A DNA stretch of 64,000 nt from an uncultured Planctomycetia bacterium (GTDB lineage: Bacteria; Omnitrophota; Gorgyraeia; JABMRN01; RBG-13-46-9). A program made the translations under genes and the position numbers. Where the stretch lies: contig CAZYPU010000002.1 in NCBI GenBank assembly GCA_964649665.1, forward strand, positions 5,855 to 69,854, written 5' to 3'. This document shows positions 4,314 through 63,013 of the stretch, piece by piece. The stretch's first letter is position 1. Each line of letters starts with the position of its first letter. Below the pieces are notes generated by a model, which was given only the letters and a program-made list of their open reading frames with translations, searched no databases and was not told where the DNA came from.

Positions 4314-5947
4314 AGTTTAATTTTTCGAAATACGGCATAAAAGGCGGGGAAAAAGCGCTCGAGCGCTTTCTTGAGATCATACCGGGCCTTACGAGCTGGA
4401 CGGTTATCGTGGGCATGTTTATCCTCGCGCTCGCAAAACCGGTTATTGCCGCGGCCATAATTATTGCCTTTTTAATTTACTGGTTCCTCAAGCTTGCGTA
4501 CCTGACGATATTTCTCATAATCTCTTATTTCAGGCTCTCCATTGAAAAAGACACGAACTGGATGAAAAGGGCCCGGGGTGTAAATGCCCCGGAGGTGTTC
4601 ATCAAGGCTTTAAGGAGCGCTTCCTCCGAAGCGCCGTTTGCAAAAAAGCTTTCGGATTATTTTTGCCGTAAAAGGCTTGAAGTCCTTACGAAAAATGGCG
4701 TGAAACCCCCGCCGCTTGAAGACATTTATCACCTGGTTATTATTCCGATAGCGAAAGAGACGCCCGACATCGTAGAGCCGGGCATTAAGAGTATCGCGGA
4801 TGGCACGTTCCCGCCCGAAAAAATTCTCGTAATTCTTGCGGTGGAAGAGAGGGCACAGGTCGATGTCAAGAAGGGGGCCGCGGACATCCGGGCGAAATAC
4901 AGGGGGAGGTTCCTGGATTTATTGGTAAACATGCATAAAGACGGCCTGCGGGGCGAAGCCCGCGTAAAAGGCGCCAACGCAAGCGTCGCCGCGAAAGTAG
5001 CCGCGGAATACTTCAAGACAAGATCTGTTTCATTCGAGAACGTGATTGTATCCTGCTTTGATTCCGACACTGTCGTGAACCCGCAGTATTTCGCCTGCCT
5101 TACTTACAGTTTTATGACCTGCCCCGACAGGACGCGTTCAAGTTTTCAGCCGATACCGGTGTATTACAACAACATCTGGGACGTGCCGGGCTTCGCGAGG
5201 GTCCTGGAGACGGGCTCTTCGTTTTTCCAGTTGATAGAGGCGACCAATCCCGAGCAGCTCGTTACCTTTTCAAGCCACAGTATGAGTTTTAAGGCGCTTG
5301 TCGATGTCGGCTACTGGCCGGTGGACATGATCTCGGACGATTCGGCTATATTCTGGAAGTCGTATATCCATTTCGATGGGAAGTACAGGGTCGTACCCAT
5401 GTACACGACGGTTTCAATGGATATCGTTGTCGCGAACACATGGTGGAAGACGATCGTAAACGAATACAAACAAAAACGAAGATGGGCCTGGGGCGTGGAG
5501 AACTTCCCGATAGTGGTGCGGGCTTTTTTGAAGGATAAAAAGATATCCTTATTCACCAAAATGAGGCTCGTCCTTAAATTGTTCGAGGGCCATATTTCAT
5601 GGGCCACATGGGCATTCCTTCTGACGGTAATCGTATGGCTTCCGCCACTCTTCGGCGGCCGGCATTTTCAGAAAAGCGTTCTTTATTATAGCGCGCCCAG
5701 GATCGACGCTATCATATTTAATCTCGCCTCCTTTTCGCTTATTACGAGCATTATTCTCAGCATTTGCCTTTTGCCGAAGCAGAAAATGAAGCACCCTTTC
5801 CTCCGAAGGATAGTTTTCGCCGTCCAGTGGCTGCTTATACCCGTTATCATCTTATTCCTGAGCGCTATTCCCGCTCTTGACGCTCAGACCAGGCTCATGC
5901 TGGGAAAGCGCCTTGAGTTCTGGGTAGCGCCGAAGAAGAAGGAGTAA
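4310..5947 (+). CDS. membrane-embedded family-2 glycosyltransferase, processive-synthase type
   Basis: N- and C-terminal TM clusters flank a GT-A core with DSD, SDDS and QKRRWAWG (QxxRW) motifs. 4-nt overlap with the upstream gene. Confidence 0.75.
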   Translation: MKFNFSKYGIKGGEKALERFLEIIPGLTSWTVIVGMFILALAKPVIAAAIIIAFLIYWFLKLAYLTIFLIISYFRLSIEKDTNWMKRARGVNAPEVFIKALRSASSEAPFAKKLSDYFCRKRLEVLTKNGVKPPPLEDIYHLVIIPIAKETPDIVEPGIKSIADGTFPPEKILVILAVEERAQVDVKKGAADIRAKYRGRFLDLLVNMHKDGLRGEARVKGANASVAAKVAAEYFKTRSVSFENVIVSCFDSDTVVNPQYFACLTYSFMTCPDRTRSSFQPIPVYYNNIWDVPGFARVLETGSSFFQLIEATNPEQLVTFSSHSMSFKALVDVGYWPVDMISDDSAIFWKSYIHFDGKYRVVPMYTTVSMDIVVANTWWKTIVNEYKQKRRWAWGVENFPIVVRAFLKDKKISLFTKMRLVLKLFEGHISWATWAFLLTVIVWLPPLFGGRHFQKSVLYYSAPRIDAIIFNLASFSLITSIILSICLLPKQKMKHPFLRRIVFAVQWLLIPVIILFLSAIPALDAQTRLMLGKRLEFWVAPKKKE

Positions 5948-5949
5948 TA

Positions 5950-7029
5950 TTGCTTGATATCGTTCGTAACTATGTCGCTTTTATAGTTTTTACTCTTATT
6001 CTTACTTCAATCCCCGCCCAAGCTGAACCCCTTCTCGTCGGCACGACATTCAGCCCGAGACAAAACGAATACCTGGGCCAGGACTGGAAAAAGGCCTATA
6101 TCTCGATCCTCGAGATGGGATTCGATGTTATTCGCCTGGCGGCCTACTGGAACGTGATTGAAAAAGAAAAGGACGTCTATAACTTCAAGGCGCTTGACTG
6201 GCAGATAAAGGAAGCGAAAAAAAGAAAAATTCCGGTTGTTCTTGTGGTCGGGATGAAGGCCCCGCGCTGGCCGGAATATCACATCCCGGAGTGGCTGCTT
6301 GCGGAAGTTGATCTTAAACCCGGACAGGAGATAGGCAAGAACCCTACCCTCGGCGAGAGGACCCTAAAATTCATAAAAAAAACAGTCAATCGCTATAAAA
6401 ACAAGCCTGCCGTTGGGTACTGGCAGGTTGAGAATGAGCCCCTGGGCCGTTTCGGGCCGCACTTCTGGTGGATAGGAGAGGAGTTTCTCGCGCAGGAGGT
6501 AAGCCTGGTCAGAAAGCTTGATCCGGGCGGCAGGCCAATTGTCATTACGGCGGAAACCTATCCCAACAATTTTATCCGGTTTATAATGGGGCTTATTCCT
6601 CCGAGGACGCCGATAAGGGACGCCATGCAACTGTGTGACATTCTCGGAATAAATATTTATCCCGCGGTGGGCAAGAAATTCTGGCGTTTTAACTACTATA
6701 TCCGGACGCGCCAGCTGGAGCGGCTGAGGTATTTTTCTAAACTCATAAAACAGGCCAAGCGCTGCGGCAAGAAGGTCTGGATTACGGAGCTTCAGGCGGA
6801 GCCCTGGGAGGCCGGCAAGCTGGTCCATAAGTCGCCGGAAAGGCCTGTAAGCATCTGGCCGGACATGATTCAAACAACATTTACTGAAATGAAAACGCTC
6901 GGTATTGACGCGGTCTTTCTATGGGGCGCCGAATACTGGTACTTCCGGAAAACGCGCTACGGCGATGTGGCCTGGTGGCAGCAAGCCGCCGACATCCTCA
7001 ATAAAAAGGTGTCAGGCACCTCTTTCTAA
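5950..7029 (+). CDS. glycoside hydrolase, clan GH-A (TIM-barrel, GH5-like)
   Basis: Signal/TM N-terminus. Candidate acid/base WQVENEP and nucleophile WITELQAEPWE motifs. TTG start 2 nt after the GT2 stop. Confidence 0.6.
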   Translation: MLDIVRNYVAFIVFTLILTSIPAQAEPLLVGTTFSPRQNEYLGQDWKKAYISILEMGFDVIRLAAYWNVIEKEKDVYNFKALDWQIKEAKKRKIPVVLVVGMKAPRWPEYHIPEWLLAEVDLKPGQEIGKNPTLGERTLKFIKKTVNRYKNKPAVGYWQVENEPLGRFGPHFWWIGEEFLAQEVSLVRKLDPGGRPIVITAETYPNNFIRFIMGLIPPRTPIRDAMQLCDILGINIYPAVGKKFWRFNYYIRTRQLERLRYFSKLIKQAKRCGKKVWITELQAEPWEAGKLVHKSPERPVSIWPDMIQTTFTEMKTLGIDAVFLWGAEYWYFRKTRYGDVAWWQQAADILNKKVSGTSF

Positions 7030-11215: not shown

Positions 11216-11229
11216 ACCGCCCGCCAAAG

Positions 11230-11439
11230 ATAAGCCTCCAGCGGGTGCTTGCCAGCGGCTCACACAAAAAATTGTGTAAAGCTATCTCCCTTGAATTTCT
11301 GCAATTTGTGAATCGGAAGGTGTGAATTATCGAGTATCTTATTTTCCGTAGAGCTATCCCTATCATGTCCAATTCACAAATTGCGAAATTCTACGGTCAA
11401 GAGCATTCGCCGCTTGGCAAGCACCCACTGGAGGCTTAT
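11230..11439 (+). repeat. family-1a nested-hairpin repeat, copy A
   Basis: Outer arms ATAAGCCTCCAGCGGGTGCTTGCCAGCGGC / GCCGCTTGGCAAGCACCCACTGGAGGCTTAT. Inner arms GAATTTCTGCAATTTGTGAATCGG / CCAATTCACAAATTGCGAAATTC. Starts 15 nt after the treT stop. Confidence 0.75.
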
Positions 11440-11470
11440 TTAACGAAAGTCTGTCTCGGCAGATATCAGC

Positions 11471-11666
11471 AATAAGGGCCTGTAGGGGTGGGCGATTGAG
11501 GCGAATAGATTCGACGTAGAATTTCATAATTTGCGAGCGGAATATAGAGATATGGCACTTTATGACATACCTGATTATCCGCTTGCAAATTGTAGAAATT
11601 CGAGGAGAAGATTTTGGCTCAATGTTTTGAGCTGAGCCTCAATCGCCCACCTCTACAGGCCTTATT
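11471..11666 (-). repeat. family-1a nested-hairpin repeat, copy B (opposite orientation)
   Basis: Outer arms AATAAGGGCCTGTAGGGGTGGGCGATTGAGGC / GCCTCAATCGCCCACCTCTACAGGCCTTATT. Its reverse complement carries the same junction motifs as copy A. Confidence 0.75.
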
Positions 11667-13058: not shown

Positions 13059-13170
13059 GTCATTCTGAGCCCCGCCCTTCGCTAGCGCTCAGGATAAACT
13101 CCGCGGGGCGAAGAATCTTAACGATAAGATCCTTCGTCGGGCTGACTTCGTCAGCCCTCCTCAGGATGAC
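13059..13170. repeat. family-2 multi-hairpin repeat, long variant
   Basis: GTCATTCTGAG...CTCAGGATGAC outer stem encloses CCCCGC/GCGGGG, CGAAGAATCTT/AAGATCCTTCG and GCTGAC-TTC-GTCAGC hairpins. Lies between leuC and leuD. Confidence 0.7.
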
Positions 13171-13185
13171 AGGCAAAAAAAGAAC

Positions 13186-15875: not shown

Positions 15876-16686
15876 CATCCGCCTCACCGTCGCCTACGAC
15901 GGCACTTGCTACGCCGGCTGGCAGATCCAGAAAAACGCAAAGACCATCCAGGGCGAAATCGAAAAAGCGTTAAAAAAAATACTTAAAACAAAAGTCCGTC
16001 TGATCGGCGCCGGCCGCACCGACTCCGGAGTCCACGCCCGCGCGCAGGTTGCGAATTTTAGTATTCGTCATTGCGAGGAGGCGCGAAGCGCCAACGAAGC
16101 AATCTCCTATGAGATTGCTTCGCTCCCTTTGGTCGCTCGCAATGACAGAAAAAAATCAGTGCACGGGCTTCAAGCAGCGTTAAACTCAAGCCTTCCATGT
16201 GATATTCGTATCATTGAGGTAAAAGAGGCGCCGCTTGAATTTCATTCGCGGTTTGACGCAAGGGGCAAGTTTTACAGGTATACGATCCTCAACAGCCCGA
16301 TAAACGATCCCTTCCTCCGGGATTATTGCCATAGAGTTTCTTGTAAGTTAAATCTCCCGCTGATGCGAAAAGAGGCGGCCGTTTTACTCGGGCGGCACGA
16401 CTTTAAATCCTTCCAGGCAAAGAGCGCCTCATCGCCCATAAAAGATACGCGAAGGACGATAAAGAAAATAACTTTTAAAAAAGAAAAAGATCTCATCCAT
16501 ATCAATATCGAAGCCAACGGTTTCCTGTACAACATGGTTCGTAACATCATAGGCACCCTCATCGAGATCGGAAGGGGATACCTTCCCGAAGGCAGCATGC
16601 GAAAGATCCTCTCCTCTAAAGACCGCCGGAAAGCCGGCCCTACCGCCCCTGCCAAAGGCCTTACCCTGATAAAGGTTAAATACTAA
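15868..16686 (+). CDS. truA: tRNA pseudouridine(38-40) synthase TruA, carrying an in-frame repeat insertion
   Basis: AGRTDSGVHA catalytic motif and FYRYTI. The segment IRHCEEARSANEAISYEIASLPLVARND is encoded by a family-2 repeat. Confidence 0.85.
   Translation: MRNIRLTVAYDGTCYAGWQIQKNAKTIQGEIEKALKKILKTKVRLIGAGRTDSGVHARAQVANFSIRHCEEARSANEAISYEIASLPLVARNDRKKSVHGLQAALNSSLPCDIRIIEVKEAPLEFHSRFDARGKFYRYTILNSPINDPFLRDYCHRVSCKLNLPLMRKEAAVLLGRHDFKSFQAKSASSPIKDTRRTIKKITFKKEKDLIHINIEANGFLYNMVRNIIGTLIEIGRGYLPEGSMRKILSSKDRRKAGPTAPAKGLTLIKVKY
16067..16146. repeat. family-2 repeat copy inside the truA coding sequence
   Basis: GTCATTGCGAG...CGAAGCAATCTC ctat GAGATTGCTTCG...CTCGCAATGAC read directly. The reading frame is preserved across it. 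Confidence 0.8.
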
Positions 16687-16719: not shown

Positions 16720-16895
16720 AATATCTTGTGTAAATTCGATGGGCATCTGAGAGCGGGAGTCCTTTCGGCGAATTTTGCATGCGACTGGCAATTTATGTGT
16801 TCAAGATTTGAAACGCTAAATTGCTACAGCCGCGCTGCAAAATTTTTCGCCTCAAGGACATCCCGCTCTCAGATGCCCTATAGATACAAGATATT
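16720..16895. repeat. family-1b nested-hairpin repeat, copy D
   Basis: AATATCTTGT/ACAAGATATT, GGGCATCTGAGAGCGGGA/TCCCGCTCTCAGATGCCC and GGCGAATTTTGCA/TGCAAAATTTTTCGCC nested arms. Starts 34 nt after the truA stop. Confidence 0.7.
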
Positions 16896-16930
16896 CTACT
16901 TTGTGACGTAGCCCTGCAGATAGGCATCGA

Positions 16931-17026
16931 GTTGACAACTATCATTTCATAGTGTATACTAAAGTTGTTAACTGTTGACAACTAGTTTACAACTTTAATT
17001 CATTGATATAGACGTAAGTTGTAAAC
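16931..17026 (+). promoter_or_regulatory. promoter (TTGACA-17-TATACT) plus five copies of a 10-bp AGTTGTNAAC/GTTNACAACT motif
   Basis: Motif copies at 16931, 16963, 16974, 16985 and 17017. The middle three are spaced exactly 11 bp apart. Immediately upstream of a wHTH-containing gene. Confidence 0.5.
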
Positions 17027-23772: not shown

Positions 23773-23776
23773 GCCT

Positions 23777-23937
23777 GTCATCCTGAGGAGGCCTGTCCCC
23801 CACCCTACGGGTCGTAGACCCGGAGGGAAAGGCCGACGACCGAAGGAAGTCCCGCATACCACAATGAACAATATAGGCCATGCGGGACGAAGGATCTTAA
23901 CGTAGAGATTCTTCGCCCCTTCGGGGCTCAGAATGAC
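23777..23937. repeat. family-2 composite repeat (GTCATCCTGAG...CTCAGAATGAC)
   Basis: Outer stem plus GTCCCGCAT/ATGCGGGAC, GAAGGATCTT/AGATTCTTCG and CCCC-TTCG-GGGG hairpins. Carries the 28-nt module ACCCTACGGGTCGTAGACCCGGAGGGAA. Confidence 0.7.
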
Positions 23938-27692: not shown

Positions 27693-29229
27693 ACAGCGGG
27701 AAACCTGGAAATCGCACTGGGGCATGATAGCGGCTATGATAGGGACCGCTATCGGCCTCGGTAATATCTGGAGATTTCCTTACCTTTGCGGCAAGTACGG
27801 CGGAGCGACCTTCCTTATTCCTTACGTAATCCTTCTATTCGGAATAGCGATTTTCGCGATGATGTGCGAGTGGGCCCTCGGCCGCCACACCAAGCGCGAG
27901 GCCCTCGGCGCTTTTGACAAGATAAAATTTCCGTTCGGAAGGGACATCGGCGCCTGGGGCATAATCGGGCCGTTCTTCCTGTATTCCTATTATATAGTCA
28001 TAACAAGTTGGGTTATATTTTTCATATTCGCCTCCCTTGAAGGGCTTTATTTCGGTAAAAACACCGAAACCTTTTTCGCCTCTTTTCTTGGAAGTAAATG
28101 GATATTTGCCGTGCATTTCGCTTCCGTCTGCATTACAAGCTGGATCCTTGCCATGGGCGTGCAAAAGGGCATAGAGAGGGCGTGCAAAATTATGATACCC
28201 GCGCTTTTTGTGCTCCTTATAATTGTGGCGGCAAGAAGCGTGACGCTTCCGGGCGCGGCAGAGGGCGTGGAATTTTACATGAGGCCGAGGTGGGATGGGC
28301 TGCTTAACATTGAGACATGGGTTGCGGCGCTGGGCCAGGTATTTTTTACGCTTAGCCTCGGCATGGGCGCGATGCTTATTTACGGCTCCTATCTTAAAGA
28401 CGAATGGGGCATACCGGCGAACGCCATGAGCGTGGCGCTGGGGAATACCTCGGCGAGCATCCTCGCGGGGTTTGCTATTTTCCCCGCGGCCTTCGCGCTC
28501 GGATTCGGAAAGACCATAGGCGGGGCAGAGTCCATAGGCCTTACTTTTTTCGTCCTGCCGAAGGTATTTGAGATGATGCCCGGAGGCCACTTCTTCGGGG
28601 GGCTATTTTTTATCCTGCTTGCCTTCGGCGCCATATCGAGCGCCATAAGTATCCAGGAGCCGGCCATAGCGTGGCTGAAAGACGAGGCCGGATGGTCAAG
28701 AAAGAGATCGGCATTTTTTACCGGCGTTATATTGTGGATAATGGGGTTTCCTTTTATTCTTAACGGCTTTATTAAAGGCACCCTCGGCGCGAAACTGGCG
28801 CTGCTTTCGAAAATGGATATTATCATAGGGCAGCTCGCCATACCTGTATTCGGTATTCTTGCGATAATCGCCGTCGGGTACTTCATGAAAGACCGCGGCT
28901 TTGACGAAATGAATAAAAACGCGAGAGTCAAACTCAGCCATACCTGGCTTAAGCCCTGGATCAGGGCAGTCGTGCCGATTTTCATCGGGCTTTTATTCAT
29001 ATTGACGCTTCTTAAAATTTTGCAGGAGAAAGGCGTCATACCGCCTGTAATTCCTTCGAAAGCGGCGCTTGAGTTTACCCCGATAGGCATAACGCCCGTT
29101 ACGATCGTCATGATCGTATTCATATGCGTTCTCTTCTGGGGCGGTTTTCTGTACACGACGGTGAAGGTGCTGACGGTAGAGAAAGACAAGAAACGGAGAG
29201 TAAAACGTGGACTTCACCATTCTCGCTGA
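27685..29229 (+). CDS. sodium:neurotransmitter symporter (NSS/SNF) family transporter
   Basis: GLGNIWRFPYLCGKYGGATFLIPY signature and about 11-12 TM segments. The GTG start overlaps the REC stop. Confidence 0.85.
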   Translation: MTEQRETWKSHWGMIAAMIGTAIGLGNIWRFPYLCGKYGGATFLIPYVILLFGIAIFAMMCEWALGRHTKREALGAFDKIKFPFGRDIGAWGIIGPFFLYSYYIVITSWVIFFIFASLEGLYFGKNTETFFASFLGSKWIFAVHFASVCITSWILAMGVQKGIERACKIMIPALFVLLIIVAARSVTLPGAAEGVEFYMRPRWDGLLNIETWVAALGQVFFTLSLGMGAMLIYGSYLKDEWGIPANAMSVALGNTSASILAGFAIFPAAFALGFGKTIGGAESIGLTFFVLPKVFEMMPGGHFFGGLFFILLAFGAISSAISIQEPAIAWLKDEAGWSRKRSAFFTGVILWIMGFPFILNGFIKGTLGAKLALLSKMDIIIGQLAIPVFGILAIIAVGYFMKDRGFDEMNKNARVKLSHTWLKPWIRAVVPIFIGLLFILTLLKILQEKGVIPPVIPSKAALEFTPIGITPVTIVMIVFICVLFWGGFLYTTVKVLTVEKDKKRRVKRGLHHSR

Positions 29230-29332
29230 TGCGCGCTTCGGCTGGACCTTCGTTATATCCGAAATTATCCTTCTATACCTCCTCTTCCTCCTTATCCACC
29301 GCCTCGTCGAGCGGAAGCTTAAAGGCAAGTAA
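29207..29332 (+). CDS. possible 41-aa single-TM small subunit of the NSS transporter
   Basis: GTG-start ORF VDFTILADARFGWTFVISEIILLYLLFLLIHRLVERKLKGK overlaps the transporter's 3' end. Too short for the ORF track. Resembles small NSS partner proteins (MetS-like) by position and size only. Confidence 0.35.
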   Translation: MDFTILADARFGWTFVISEIILLYLLFLLIHRLVERKLKGK

Positions 29333-29349
29333 CCGGAAAATTTAGCAAT

Positions 29350-29607
29350 ATAGGCCTCCGGGGGATGCCTGCGGCGGCTCACACAAAAAATTGTGTAAAG
29401 CTCTCTCCGTAGAATTTCTGCGCTGTGCTCGTTGGATTTAAGGAAATACAAAAGAAATAGCCGATGGTTTTCTTGTCCGCCGAAGCCTTGGCGTAGGCGG
29501 AAACCATCGGCTATTTCTTCGAACTAGACCTGTATACCAACTGCGCAAGCGCGAAATTCTATTGTCGAGAGCATTCGCCGCCTGGCAGGCATCCCCCGGA
29601 GGCCTAT
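29350..29607 (+). repeat. family-1a nested-hairpin repeat, copy C
   Basis: Outer arms ATAGGCCTCCGGGGGATGCCTGCGGCGGC / GCCGCCTGGCAGGCATCCCCCGGAGGCCTAT. Shares GGCTCACACAAAAAATTGTGTAAAGCT, GAATTTCTGC, GCGAAATTCTA and GAGCATTCGCCGC with copy A. Confidence 0.75.
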
Positions 29608-29682
29608 TCTTACTGTACATTTGAAAGCTAATCCGACAGATCTAACCAGGTTAGAATGCCGTCTATATCGACACCTACGGAC

Positions 29683-29951
29683 GGGAGAGAGTCTGTGTGA
29701 AGAGCCTTAAAAATTAAGGCGTAGTTTTATGCTTTTTGAGGTTTCCTTTTGTCACATGTTATGAGACAAAAAGGATTGCAGTTGTCTGAGGCCCACACCG
29801 AGCGTATCACCAGCAAGGCGTGTGTGGGCCGAGTTCTGCAATCCCCTCAAAAAGCTTAAAACTACACCGACCCCCACACCAATTACTATTGGTGTGGGGG
29901 ATAATTTTTCTTATCAGCTTTAGCAGAAGGCTCTCACACAGGCTCTCTCCC
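29683..29951. repeat. large multi-branch inverted-repeat element (copy F)
   Basis: GGGAGAGAGTCTGTGTGAAGAGCC / GGCTCTCACACAGGCTCTCTCCC closes at least four internal hairpins (for example GGCGTAGTTTTATGCTTTTTGAGG / CCTCAAAAAGCTTAAAACTACACC; CCCCCACACCAAT-tact-ATTGGTGTGGGGG). Confidence 0.65.
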
Positions 29952-30008
29952 GGCCGGAGGTAAGTGTGTGAGCCGCTTGGAAAGCATACCCGGAGGTTTA
30001 TTTTATGC

Positions 30009-30037
30009 TTGACAATACGGCGGGAATGTGGTAAATT
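30009..30037 (+). promoter_or_regulatory. sigma70-like promoter for rplM-rpsI (TTGACA-17-TAAATT)
   Basis: Consensus -35 with 17-nt spacing, 25 nt upstream of the ATG at 30062. Confidence 0.45.
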
Positions 30038-30061
30038 TAGCGTTCTTATGCGGAGCTTATT

Positions 30062-30490
30062 ATGAAGACAGTGTATGTAAGGCAGGAGGACGTAAAGAGG
30101 GAGTGGCACCTGGTGGACGCCAGCGAAAAGGTGCTGGGCAGGCTTGCTACGGGGATAGCGTCCCTTCTTAAGGGCAAGGGCAAGGTCGCTTATTCTCACC
30201 ACGTGGACATGGGCGATGGCGTAGTTGTCATAAATGGCGGTAAAATAAGGGTTACCGGCAAAAAGCCCCAGCAGAAGGTATACAAGAGGTTCTCCGGTTA
30301 CCCGGGCGGCTTGAAACTCGAGACATACGAATCCTTATTTAAAAGAAGGCCGAATGAGGTGTTGAGGCACGCCGTAAAGGGCATGCTTCCGAAGAACAAG
30401 CTCGGCAGAAGAATGATAAAGAGATTAAAGATTTACGCAGACGACAAGCACGACCAGGCGGCGCAAAAGCCGAAAAAAATTAAGCTGTAA
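30062..30490 (+). CDS. rplM: 50S ribosomal protein L13
   Basis: REWHLVDA...GRLAT..., KGMLPKNKLGR motifs. Confidence 0.95.
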   Translation: MKTVYVRQEDVKREWHLVDASEKVLGRLATGIASLLKGKGKVAYSHHVDMGDGVVVINGGKIRVTGKKPQQKVYKRFSGYPGGLKLETYESLFKRRPNEVLRHAVKGMLPKNKLGRRMIKRLKIYADDKHDQAAQKPKKIKL

Positions 30491-34142: not shown

Positions 34143-35323
34143 ACGCCAGAAACGTTATAGAGTTATACGACAAATACGTGATGCGGACATACACAAGGGT
34201 GCCGCTTGTTCTTGAGAAGGCGAAGGGCGCTCTTCTAGAGGATATCGAAGGAAAAAAATACCTGGATTTTTTTCCGGGATGGGCGGTAAGCGGGATAGGG
34301 CATTGCCACCCGAGCGTTGTGGCGGCAATTTCAAAGCAGGCGAAAAAGCTTATTCACGTTTCCAATAATTATTACAGCGCGCTTCAGGGGGCGCTTGCCG
34401 AAAAGATTATCGGGCATTCTTTTCCGGGAAAGGTGTTTTTCTGCAATTCCGGGGCAGAAGCCAACGAGGGAGCCGTTAAACTCGCCAGAAAATACGGCCA
34501 TAAAAGGGGAAGATACGAAGTTATAACTATGGATAAGTCCTTTCACGGAAGGACGCTCGCGATGATAGCGGCTACCGGGCAGGAGAAGGTTAAGCTCGGT
34601 TTTGAGCCTTTACCCGAAGGCTTCAGACATGTTCCGTTCGGCGACGCGCTCGCCCTGGAAAATGCCGTAACGAAGAAAACCGCGGCGGTAATGATGGAGC
34701 TTATCCAGTGCGAGGGCGGTATTAATATCGCGAAGGCCGAATACGTAAGAAAGGTGCGGGAAATCTGCGATAAAAACGATATAGTGCTTATTTTTGACGA
34801 GGTCCAGACAGGCATGGGTAGAACGGGCAAGATGTTCTGCTATCAAAATTATGGAATAAAGCCCGACGTGATTACGCTCGCGAAATCACTCGGCGGCGGG
34901 CTTCCCATAGGCGCCATTGTGGCAAGTTCCGAATTCGCCGATGTGCTGGGTCCCGGTTCACACGCCTCGACCTTCGGTGGTAGTCCCCTTGCCTCGGCCG
35001 CCGCGCTCGGGGTATTTAAAGCCATTGAAAAAGATAAATTGCTGCGAAACGCCGTAAAGCAGGGCAGGTATCTGGCGGGAAAGCTCAAAGCCCTTAAAAA
35101 GAAACACAATGTTATAAAAGGAGTGAGGGGCATTGCCCTGACGATCGGAGTTGAATTAACCATAGACGGCCAGGCGATATACGAGAAATGCCTCGAGAAG
35201 GGGCTTCTTATAAACTGCACGCAGAAAAATGTTTTAAGAATAATGCCCTCGCTTACTGTTACTAAGGCCGAGATCGATAAGGCGATGGCTATTTTGGAAA
35301 GCGTCATTGCGAGGGCGCGATAG
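34139..35323 (+). CDS. argD: acetylornithine aminotransferase (class III)
   Basis: NSGAEANEGA, LIFDEVQTGMGRTGK and TLAKSLGGGLP motifs. The last 6 codons and the stop lie inside a family-2 repeat. Confidence 0.9.
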   Translation: MNARNVIELYDKYVMRTYTRVPLVLEKAKGALLEDIEGKKYLDFFPGWAVSGIGHCHPSVVAAISKQAKKLIHVSNNYYSALQGALAEKIIGHSFPGKVFFCNSGAEANEGAVKLARKYGHKRGRYEVITMDKSFHGRTLAMIAATGQEKVKLGFEPLPEGFRHVPFGDALALENAVTKKTAAVMMELIQCEGGINIAKAEYVRKVREICDKNDIVLIFDEVQTGMGRTGKMFCYQNYGIKPDVITLAKSLGGGLPIGAIVASSEFADVLGPGSHASTFGGSPLASAAALGVFKAIEKDKLLRNAVKQGRYLAGKLKALKKKHNVIKGVRGIALTIGVELTIDGQAIYEKCLEKGLLINCTQKNVLRIMPSLTVTKAEIDKAMAILESVIARAR

Positions 35324-35382
35324 CGCCCGAAGCAATCCCAAACGATGAGATTGCTTCGGCGCCTTTGGCGCCTCGCAATGAC
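35303..35382. repeat. family-2 three-hairpin repeat overlapping the argD 3' end
   Basis: GTCATTGCGAG-[GGCGC gatag CGCCC]-[GAAGCAATC...GAGATTGCTTC]-[GGCGCC ttt GGCGCC]-TCGCAATGAC. The argD TAG stop is in the first loop. Confidence 0.8.
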
Positions 35383-35399
35383 AAGATGGGAATAAACAA

Positions 35400-55992: not shown

Positions 55993-56106
55993 GACCCCAC
56001 GCCGGAGTTTATCCCAAGCGGCAGCGAAGGGGCGCGGGGAATACGCGGAGAATACTGCGGGCGCCTGCCTGCCGGCAGGCAGGTAAGCCCGCAGAGGAAC
56101 GAATAT

Positions 56107-57310: not shown

Positions 57311-57497
57311 AAGTAAACCGGGATCCTGTCCGCAGGTGTCAGCTGTCAGCGGGCGCCCTTCCGGCGAATTTTGTGGCTCGCTGCAATTGGTGTGGGGAAG
57401 CTTTCACCACTCAATTGCGACGCTCACGCACAAAATTTTTCGCCTCCAGGGCATCCCGCCGACAGCTGCCACCAAAATTTGTAATCCCGGTTTACTT
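57311..57497. repeat. family-1b nested-hairpin repeat, copy E
   Basis: AAGTAAACCGGGAT/ATCCCGGTTTACTT, CAGCTGTCAGCGGG/CCCGCCGACAGCTG and GGCGAATTTTGTG/CACAAAATTTTTCGCC nested arms. Starts 2 nt after the etfA stop. Confidence 0.7.
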
Positions 57498-62633: not shown

Positions 62634-62693
62634 AGTGTAGCATAACGGGTATTCGTGTCAAGTGTTATCGTTGGGTAGGCGTTTCCTCGGTTT

Positions 62694-62829
62694 GTCATCC
62701 TGAGGCGCCCTGAAAGGGTGCCGTCTCCGACCCTACGGGTCGTAGACCCGGAGGGAAGGATCTTTCGTTAAGATTCTTCGGCACTGCGTGCCTTAGAATG
62801 ACAAGGGTGAAGGGCTCGCTCAGGATGAC
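62694..62829. repeat. family-2 composite repeat
   Basis: GTCATCCTGAG...CTCAGGATGAC with an internal TTAGAATGAC arm and the same 28-nt module ACCCTACGGGTCGTAGACCCGGAGGGAA (62730-62757) seen at 23802-23829. Confidence 0.7.
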
Positions 62830-62877
62830 ACAAGGAGAAAATAGGATAATGTAAAATATTGTGGGCACTTTCAACAT

Positions 62878-63013
62878 GTCATTGCGAGGTCTGCGAAGCA
62901 GACCGAAGCAATCTTTTCGTTTGAGATTGCTTCCTCCTTCGCCACATTGCTTACGCGTGTGGCTTCGGAGGACAAGTCGGCCACTATCGCTTGTAGGGCG
63001 GCCTCGCAATGAC
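62878..63013. repeat. family-2 repeat, extended copy
   Basis: GTCATTGCGAG-[GTCTGC gaa GCAGAC]-[CGAAGCAATCT...GAGATTGCTTC]-extra hairpins-CTCGCAATGAC. Confidence 0.75.

Follow-up and report, generated by a model that had tools for sequence, protein, structure and literature searches.

ERIC elements keep their hairpin through compensatory change, and their size variants result from internal insertions. Together with Correia/NEMIS, RUP and Nezha, they represent the bacterial MITEs and palindromic repeats, which the elements described here resemble in size range, lack of an ORF, long inverted arms and intergenic location, as well as in element-in-element insertion and variable presence between relatives. 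Unlike in those families, the terminal sequences are not conserved here and there is no demonstrated target-site duplication; no cognate IS has been identified, and there is no sequence similarity to known families.

REP sequences usually carry a GTAG head, on which RAYT cleavage depends wherever this has been tested (PMC8266576), and compensatory changes between the arms have been reported for REPINs (PMC3116915). The elements considered here share with the REP/REPIN–RAYT system the character of intergenic, gene-less, multi-copy, clustered single-strand hairpins with compensatory arm change (PMC3116915) and no target-site duplication observed. They also have a GTAG-type tetranucleotide at the 5' foot of the palindrome (PMC8266576), although its use by an enzyme is putative in this case, and a Y1 gene occupies the same spacer of one relative (L016). 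On the other hand, they are branched and 190–290 nt long, compared with 20–50 nt for REPs and about 100 nt for doublets, and the short hairpins on either side of the Y1 genes examined are unrelated to them, with the L016 protein falling below the RAYT cut-off. Moreover, it is the centre that is conserved here and not the ends, whereas both REP/REPIN–RAYT elements and MITEs have recognized ends.

Two further systems offer parallels. The IS200/IS605 PATEs similarly need neither terminal inverted repeats nor target-site duplications and show strand asymmetry, and folded single-strand ends would be what is recognized in both, but they have two subterminal hairpins in place of the one large closed hairpin seen here, and the hairpins of the resident Y1 units (AAGTTGACA...TGTCAACTT) are absent from the ends of families 1 and F. 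HEARO (the IscB omega RNA) is comparable by analogy only, as a large, multi-copy, covariation-rich motif that behaves as a mobile element; in contrast, none of the 14 family-1 copies adjoins a nuclease or transposase ORF, and there is no Rfam match. A literature search found no description of these elements or of the repeat content of Omnitrophota, which are uncultured, very small bacteria. Families 1 and F2 are previously undescribed, yet they are a variant of a known element type.

The spacer upstream of rplM

The locus lies in a stretch of 64,000 nt from an Omnitrophota genome, hereafter called the window, and comprises the spacer between an SNF-family transporter gene and rplM. Homologues of its L13 protein assign the window to Candidatus Omnitrophota. 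Its features are as follows (R1 and R2 are covariance models).

29207–29332, plus strand: small ORF of 41 aa, overlapping the 3' end of the SNF-family transporter gene; left edge of the variable spacer
29348–29608, minus strand (core strand): element C, family 1, subtype 1a, complete copy, model R1
29609–29672, no strand: 64-nt gap between C and F, no element assigned
29673–29961, plus strand: element F, composite, with outer frame F1 (29673–29711 and 29873–29961, hairpin 29871–29900 being counted with it) around a presumably nested F2
29712–29872, plus strand: F2 module of a separate branched-hairpin family, approximately 160 nt, model R2, 135 bits
29965–30004, plus strand: 40-nt family-1 remnant of subtype 1a, in which the small P5 hairpin survives as its 3' half (TGTGTGAGCC) and P1 as its 3' arm
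30009–30037, plus strand: rplM promoter (TTGACA, 17 nt, TAAATT) with an upstream TG; native, outside the inserted block

The spacer covers 29333–30061 (729 nt), with the 41-aa ORF as its left and rplM as its right neighbour. The original prediction had described it as approximately 730 bp made of hairpin elements, and with small coordinate corrections this description stands: all three pieces exist, and the whole spacer folds at −355.5 kcal/mol (z = −18.7), while coding-region controls range from z = +1.2 to −5.1. On balance, the spacer appears to be a hot spot filled with gene-less hairpin DNA repeats, namely an intact family-1 element (C), a composite of F2 in F1 and a decayed family-1 end.

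The prediction had also named an assembly artefact, through collapse or chimerism of a repeat, as a finding that would undo it; with palindromic repeats this is a natural suspicion. The contigs L021 and L024 do break inside these elements, which shows that assemblers have difficulty with them. However, positions 29000–30200 are reproduced at 100 % identity in contigs from ENA, two JGI samples and Logan; since these four independent assemblies, which stem from different pipelines and samples, agree completely across the spacer and both flanks, the spacer is not an assembly artefact, and an explanation of this kind deserves practically no credence.

The 41-aa ORF shows in-frame conservation in an alignment with L013, L016 and L019 and has also been called as a gene in L001 and L035. 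Its hydrophobic product has no Pfam match and is probably a real small membrane protein. On the opposite side, the promoter at 30009–30037 is the sole promoter-like site found in the region, and the same arrangement (CTTGACA, 17 nt, TAAATT) stands directly upstream of rplM in L013, L016 and L019; the promoter recognized in the original prediction is conserved in four species.

Rfam 15, whose families should cover leaders of ribosomal-protein operons as well as ribozymes and group II introns, gave no match in the whole window at gathering thresholds and only noise in 29200–30150 at E values up to 10, while the tRNA/tmRNA search returned none. BLAST of the whole spacer against plasmids and phages gave no match, scans of viral contigs with the F-arm, 1a-core, family-1 and F2 motifs gave 0 matches each, and the 42-aa ORF predicted within C, used as a protein query to find more copies, retrieved only itself. 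Inspection of the elements revealed neither an ORF nor a target-site duplication nor a conserved terminal repeat.

Family 1

Element C, originally placed at 29350–29607 as a copy of family 1a, was recovered by R1 with 141 bits (E = 6e-30); the model sets it at 29351–29608, and its limits are now taken as 29348–29608. Its closing stem P1 pairs 29350–29372 with 29585–29607 perfectly (23/23 bp), and an inner apical hairpin occupies 29452–29519. The fold reaches −157 kcal/mol with z = −15.7 under RNA parameters and z = −14.8 under DNA parameters. Copies 96–98 % identical to C are present in L021 and L024 in other gene contexts, both with an extra segment of approximately 36 nt that resembles a separate small repeat (13075–13103).

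The fragment that had been noted at 29954–29997 is likewise real and is best placed at 29965–30004. It is complementary to the left arm of C and 80 % identical to the reverse complement of 11227–11266 (BLAST, E = 0.007). It is what decay has left of a further family-1 copy, namely its 3' end, and shares its subtype with C.

The window contains a second hairpin cluster with two further copies.

11229–11440, minus strand: family-1 copy
11471–11666, plus strand: family-1 copy

Together they make up a cluster (11229–11666) of two complete, opposed copies, with a gene for a TreT-like glycosyltransferase on one side and one of the aconitase family on the other. Both share their architecture with C (C and 11229–11440 being read on the minus strand). 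Family-1 elements measure about 200 nt and have the invariant core GGCGAAT...GTAGAATTTC...GAAATTC...TGAGCC, with the 5' part ordered as P1, GGCGAAT, 6 nt, GAC and (G/A)TAGAATTTC, which opens a long hairpin with a variable apex, and the 3' part as GAAATTC, a small hairpin whose loop is rich in T, TGAGCC and finally the second, 3' arm of P1. The motif occurs three times in the window against 0 expected, and nine further true matches were found in JGI metagenomes; a tenth, in L025, looks like chance. R1 recovers 14 copies at 99–195 bits from the window and other Omnitrophota contigs, including one (L024 606–814) that lay outside the training set.

In the alignment of 12 family-1 sequences, 90.6 % of stem cells are paired, compared with 73 % in shuffles and 32–50 % when the partners are slid by one to three columns, and both sides have changed in 27 of the 44 pairs. 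The tetranucleotide (G/A)TAG at the foot of helix P3 is invariant in all 12 aligned copies (GTAG in 10, ATAG in two). Stems contain 23 G.T wobbles against 10 A.C mismatches (p = 0.035), and this excess points to one folded strand. With respect to the genes that flank them, copies occur in both orientations (about 6 sense, 8 antisense), and those in the window show no orientation bias with respect to the leading strand. Similarity among copies ends at the element boundaries.

Conservation is distributed unevenly along the element. The ends formed by P1 are its least conserved part, with 36–75 % identity where the cores are 94–95 % identical; thus, 11471–11666 and the L026 copy share 94 % identity over a 139-nt core and 36 % over P1, both stems being fully paired. 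The faster change of P1 may possibly result from gene conversion of the cores, from template-switch correction of quasi-palindromes or from re-housing of cores in new hairpins. The notion that P1 is a pre-existing hairpin that received an inserted core is unsupported, as the window contains no solo P1-like hairpins.

Element F and the F2 module

For F, the original prediction gave a multi-branch element at 29683–29951 whose closing stem enclosed at least four hairpins. Four enclosed hairpins were indeed found (the F2 stem, pairing 29716–29741 with 29845–29868; 29747–29771; 29773–29844, with an inner GGCCCACAC stem; and 29871–29900), and the outer stem extends further than proposed, to 29673–29961, its 28-nt arms (29673–29700 and 29934–29961) being 89 % complementary. 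The fold of the plus strand reaches −158.8 kcal/mol (z = −15.6) and that of the minus strand −156.6 kcal/mol (z = −13.8), while DNA parameters give z = −17. The hairpin at 29871–29900, in which a 13-bp GC-rich stem is followed by ATAATTTTTC on the plus strand, matches the pattern of an intrinsic terminator and could serve as a stop for read-through from the SNF operon.

There is no second copy of F within the window. Nonetheless, F is not unique, uniqueness having been named as a result that would count against it: a second copy is present in L021 and copies of its inner module in L024 and L028. The L021 copy, 92–95 % identical, adjoins a C-like copy, runs to the contig end and lies downstream of a divergent pair of genes, TolC-like and MarR-like, for which the window has no counterpart. 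F was also considered as a diverged member of family 1; the likeness is one of architecture alone, R1 scoring 9.1 bits with E = 0.011 within only 471 nt, and F is not counted as a member. A scan of a genome collection with the F-arm motif gave only chance-like single matches. The two matches in an Acidobacteria subdivision 13 MAG (L005 5950–6100 and L012 5615–5756) were rejected as F homologues, the sequence belonging to the MAG's own repeat (GAGTCTGTGTGA...TCACACAGACTC), and the approximately 18 nt common to that repeat and the left arm of F are judged a coincidence.

Outside the window, the F2 module was found at three sites.

L024 291–430: F2 copy, R2 151 bits, with its own closing stem and without F1
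L028 2590–2727, minus strand: F2 copy, R2 131 bits, with its own closing stem and without F1
L021 2769–2872: partial F2 copy, model R2

The R2 scores, 135 bits for the window and 85–151 bits for L024, L028 and L021, are circular, as all four rows including the window sequence were used to build the model. Support independent of R2 comes from BLAST, with 77 % identity over 66 nt for L024 (E = 2.7e-7) and 66 % over 95 nt for L028 (E = 2.8e-4). RNAalifold kept just 13 pairs from the three to four sequences of the F2 alignment, so the case for covariation is made by comparing the stems themselves: at the base of the second hairpin, the window has GGATTGCAG/CTGCAATCC, L024 GGGCGGTTG/CAATCGCCC and L028 GGGCGCCG/CGGCGCCC, so that the sequence varies and complementarity is kept. 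The window copy has GCGTAG at the 5' stem.

Since F2 occurs without F1 in L024 and L028, the preferred reading of F is that an F2 module sits inside a second hairpin, a reading drawn from the sequence arrangement, F1 having been seen only together with F2. The earlier remark that F is too large and too branched for a simple REP was correct and would be explained by such nesting within an outer hairpin frame. Each of the four F2 copies has a family-1 copy no more than about 110 nt away, in identical relative orientation and with unrelated intervening spacers, but this adjacency may reflect sampling bias, as the loci were fetched through the family-1 motif. The elements cluster: in L024, four of them share one 880-nt spacer, and the contig begins inside the first. 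This spacer (L024 1–884), upstream of a gene for a TPR protein, holds in turn a C-like copy, F2, an unclassified 160-nt hairpin (440–600) and the family-1 copy at 606–814.

The same spacer in related genomes

The corresponding spacer was compared among relatives, here identified by the identity of their L13 protein to that of the window.

L013, L13 88 % identical: 61 nt before rplM, promoter only
L035, L13 82 % identical: 55 nt before rplM
L034, L13 85 % identical: 75 nt before rplM
L016, L13 85 % identical: spacer with a 296-aa Y1_Tnp gene
L019, L13 85 % identical: spacer with a pilin-like gene, hairpins and a complete family-1 element
Window: 729 nt before rplM, with C, F and the fragment

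Given the 55–75 nt found in L013, L034 and L035, which accommodate nothing beyond the conserved promoter, approximately 670 nt of the window spacer are a lineage-specific insertion just upstream of the −35 box. The empty sites recovered cover the whole inserted block and not single elements, and the junctions of the elements are therefore approximate. Among the relatives aligned, the small ORF and the promoter are conserved on both sides and the sequence between them is variable. The comparison supports the spacer as a permissive insertion hot spot directly upstream of the rplM promoter and bears out the earlier suggestion of a landing pad: it is empty in three relatives, holds a Y1 unit in L016 and a family-1 copy in L019, and retains a 40-nt remnant in the window. 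The block is variably present between relatives, and copies of C, F and F2 recur in unrelated contexts. The spacer provides a clean natural series of empty sites, a transposase unit and hairpin elements. In L016, about 95 nt (5905–6000) lie between the conserved rplM promoter and the start codon, an addition that the other species do not have.

The alternative offered in the original prediction, a long structured transcript, is not supported. Position directly upstream of rplM and very high structure would suit an extended, folded 5' leader of the rplM–rpsI operon or an RNA that regulates it. However, the conserved promoter lies downstream of the block, close relatives with 82–88 % identical L13 lack the block entirely, and the sequence matches no Rfam family, which leaves a leader function very improbable.

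Mobile repeats or functional RNAs

The reading of C, F, F2 and family 1 as non-autonomous mobile DNA repeats of the MITE/REPIN kind is well supported, as they are gene-less, multi-copy, variably present, clustered and found in both orientations, and their similarity stops at the element ends. The conserved core and the covarying stems count against it, since a functional RNA would show the same features. Family 1 and F2 could accordingly be structured RNAs, either small RNA genes or cis-acting modules, with the core as a binding or catalytic centre and their spread as a secondary matter. Strong covariation in three helices would agree with such a function, as would the unpaired GGCGAAT, (G/A)TAGAATTTC and TGAGCC, invariant across copies from several species, the preponderance of G.U wobbles over A.C mismatches on one strand, and core identity far above that of the closing stem. 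It is nevertheless considered unlikely: no conserved promoter or terminator accompanies the copies, their orientation is mixed (as noted above), they are present or absent at one locus between relatives, other repeats are nested inside them, Rfam has no match, and long DNA inverted repeats can gain arm complementarity without selection on RNA.

Preference is thus given to mobile DNA repeats, which may spread as DNA through a folded single-strand intermediate. The need to fold would maintain the complementarity of the arms, probably with a contribution from template-switch correction of quasi-palindromes, and the elements would be passengers in this spacer, with no demonstrated role for rplM.

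A further proposal sees in family 1 and F2 a possible novel class of functional, structured nucleic acids of Omnitrophota and takes their invariant core (approximately 140 nt) as the active unit, an RNA or single-stranded DNA partner of an enzyme acting in trans. This unit would acquire a new closing hairpin time and again, for instance by inserting into hairpin loops. It would explain the nesting, the split between 94 % identity in the core and 36 % in the stem, and the recurrent pairing of family 1 with F2; its probability is nonetheless put low.

Candidate mobilizing enzymes

Classical MITEs moved by a DDE transposase, such as an IS630/Tc1-like enzyme with a TA target, would account for the long arms as terminal inverted repeats. 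The pattern TA|(A/G)GCC...GGC(T/C)|TA bounds w_A, w_C and w_1b as well as the copies in L019, L021 and L024 (subtype 1a and several of 1b), the window block is bounded by TA...TA relative to the empty site of L013, and the elements are short, multi-copy and devoid of ORFs. However, the TA sits in the palindromic ATAAGCC/GGCTTAT end of one sub-lineage and may therefore be element sequence; L020, L026 and L027 have no symmetric TA flanks, and no direct repeats are seen at other copies; the termini are hypervariable, also where the cores are 94–95 % identical; and neither a DDE transposase nor matching terminal repeats occur in any fetched locus. Because neither target-site duplications nor conserved terminal repeats were seen, this origin is not favoured and appears unlikely, the TA keeping the option alive.

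For the single-strand route preferred above, an enzyme supplied in trans would handle the folded intermediate, and a Y1/HUH tyrosine transposase of the IS200/RAYT type is the leading candidate. The conserved fold, the invariant (G/A)TAG, the excess of G.T and the lack of any observed target-site duplication would all fit such an intermediate. Among Omnitrophota, Y1 genes with an HTH domain (about 300 aa) are common; one of them (L033) was recovered from a sample in which the organism studied here is present as well. The following Y1_Tnp+HTH genes of about 300 aa were located.

L016 4880–5860
L030 100–1120
L031 2390–3430
L033 3760–4760

The L016 protein matches Pfam Y1_Tnp and scores 59.5 bits with the NCBIfam RAYT model, against a cut-off of 80. 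Each of the four genes lies between two direct repeats of a short hairpin, AAGTTGACA...TGTCAACTT or a variant of it, and genes and hairpins together look like minimal IS200-type units. R1 found no family-1 element near any of the four, and the 64-kb window contains no transposase of any kind, including Y1. As the direct link test failed, the Y1 genes being flanked by unrelated hairpins, mobilization by a Y1/HUH enzyme is proposed tentatively, as a possibility short of a probability.

The Y1 genes are inserted singly between housekeeping genes, the L031 insertion lying inside the ATP synthase operon, and many database contigs are about 950–1000 nt long, which is roughly the size of the gene. 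A relationship between the 64-nt C–F gap and the Y1-flanking hairpins, prompted by the common GGTTAGAATG, was rejected, as the alignment scores of the gap with these hairpins, with the L021 spacer and with other window sequence were all within the shuffle null.

Implications and other repeats of the window

A conserved core joined to a closing stem that changes fast yet never loses its complementarity is not usual among MITEs and REPINs and could reveal a hairpin-targeting insertion mechanism or an unrecognized RNA. The locus is useful for cataloguing and introduces no new kind of biology; if the elements are simply selfish repeats, they belong to routine genome natural history. R1 and R2 can be used to annotate repeats, which should reduce spurious calls such as the 42-aa ORF in C and explain contig breaks in MAGs.

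Further repeats of the window fall into several types.

16740–16881 and 57337–57473: another hairpin family, built on a GGCGAATTTTG...CAAAATTTTTCGCC core, with outer stems that covary; R1 scores weakly, 40.5 and 29.9 bits
14721–14805, 16055–16147, 35291–35383 and 62877–62936: short repeats on TGTCATTGCGAG...GAAGCAATCTC
13075–13174, 23773–23919, 56003–56031 and 62682–62841: short repeats on TGTCATCCTGAGG / CCCTTCGC..GCTCAGGAT

A segment resembling the TGTCATCCTGAGG / CCCTTCGC..GCTCAGGAT type is nested in the L021 and L024 copies of C. In addition, a lone hairpin (AGTTGACA...TGTTAACT) at 16930–16973, upstream of a gene for a HATPase/DUF4325 protein, resembles those that flank the Y1 genes.
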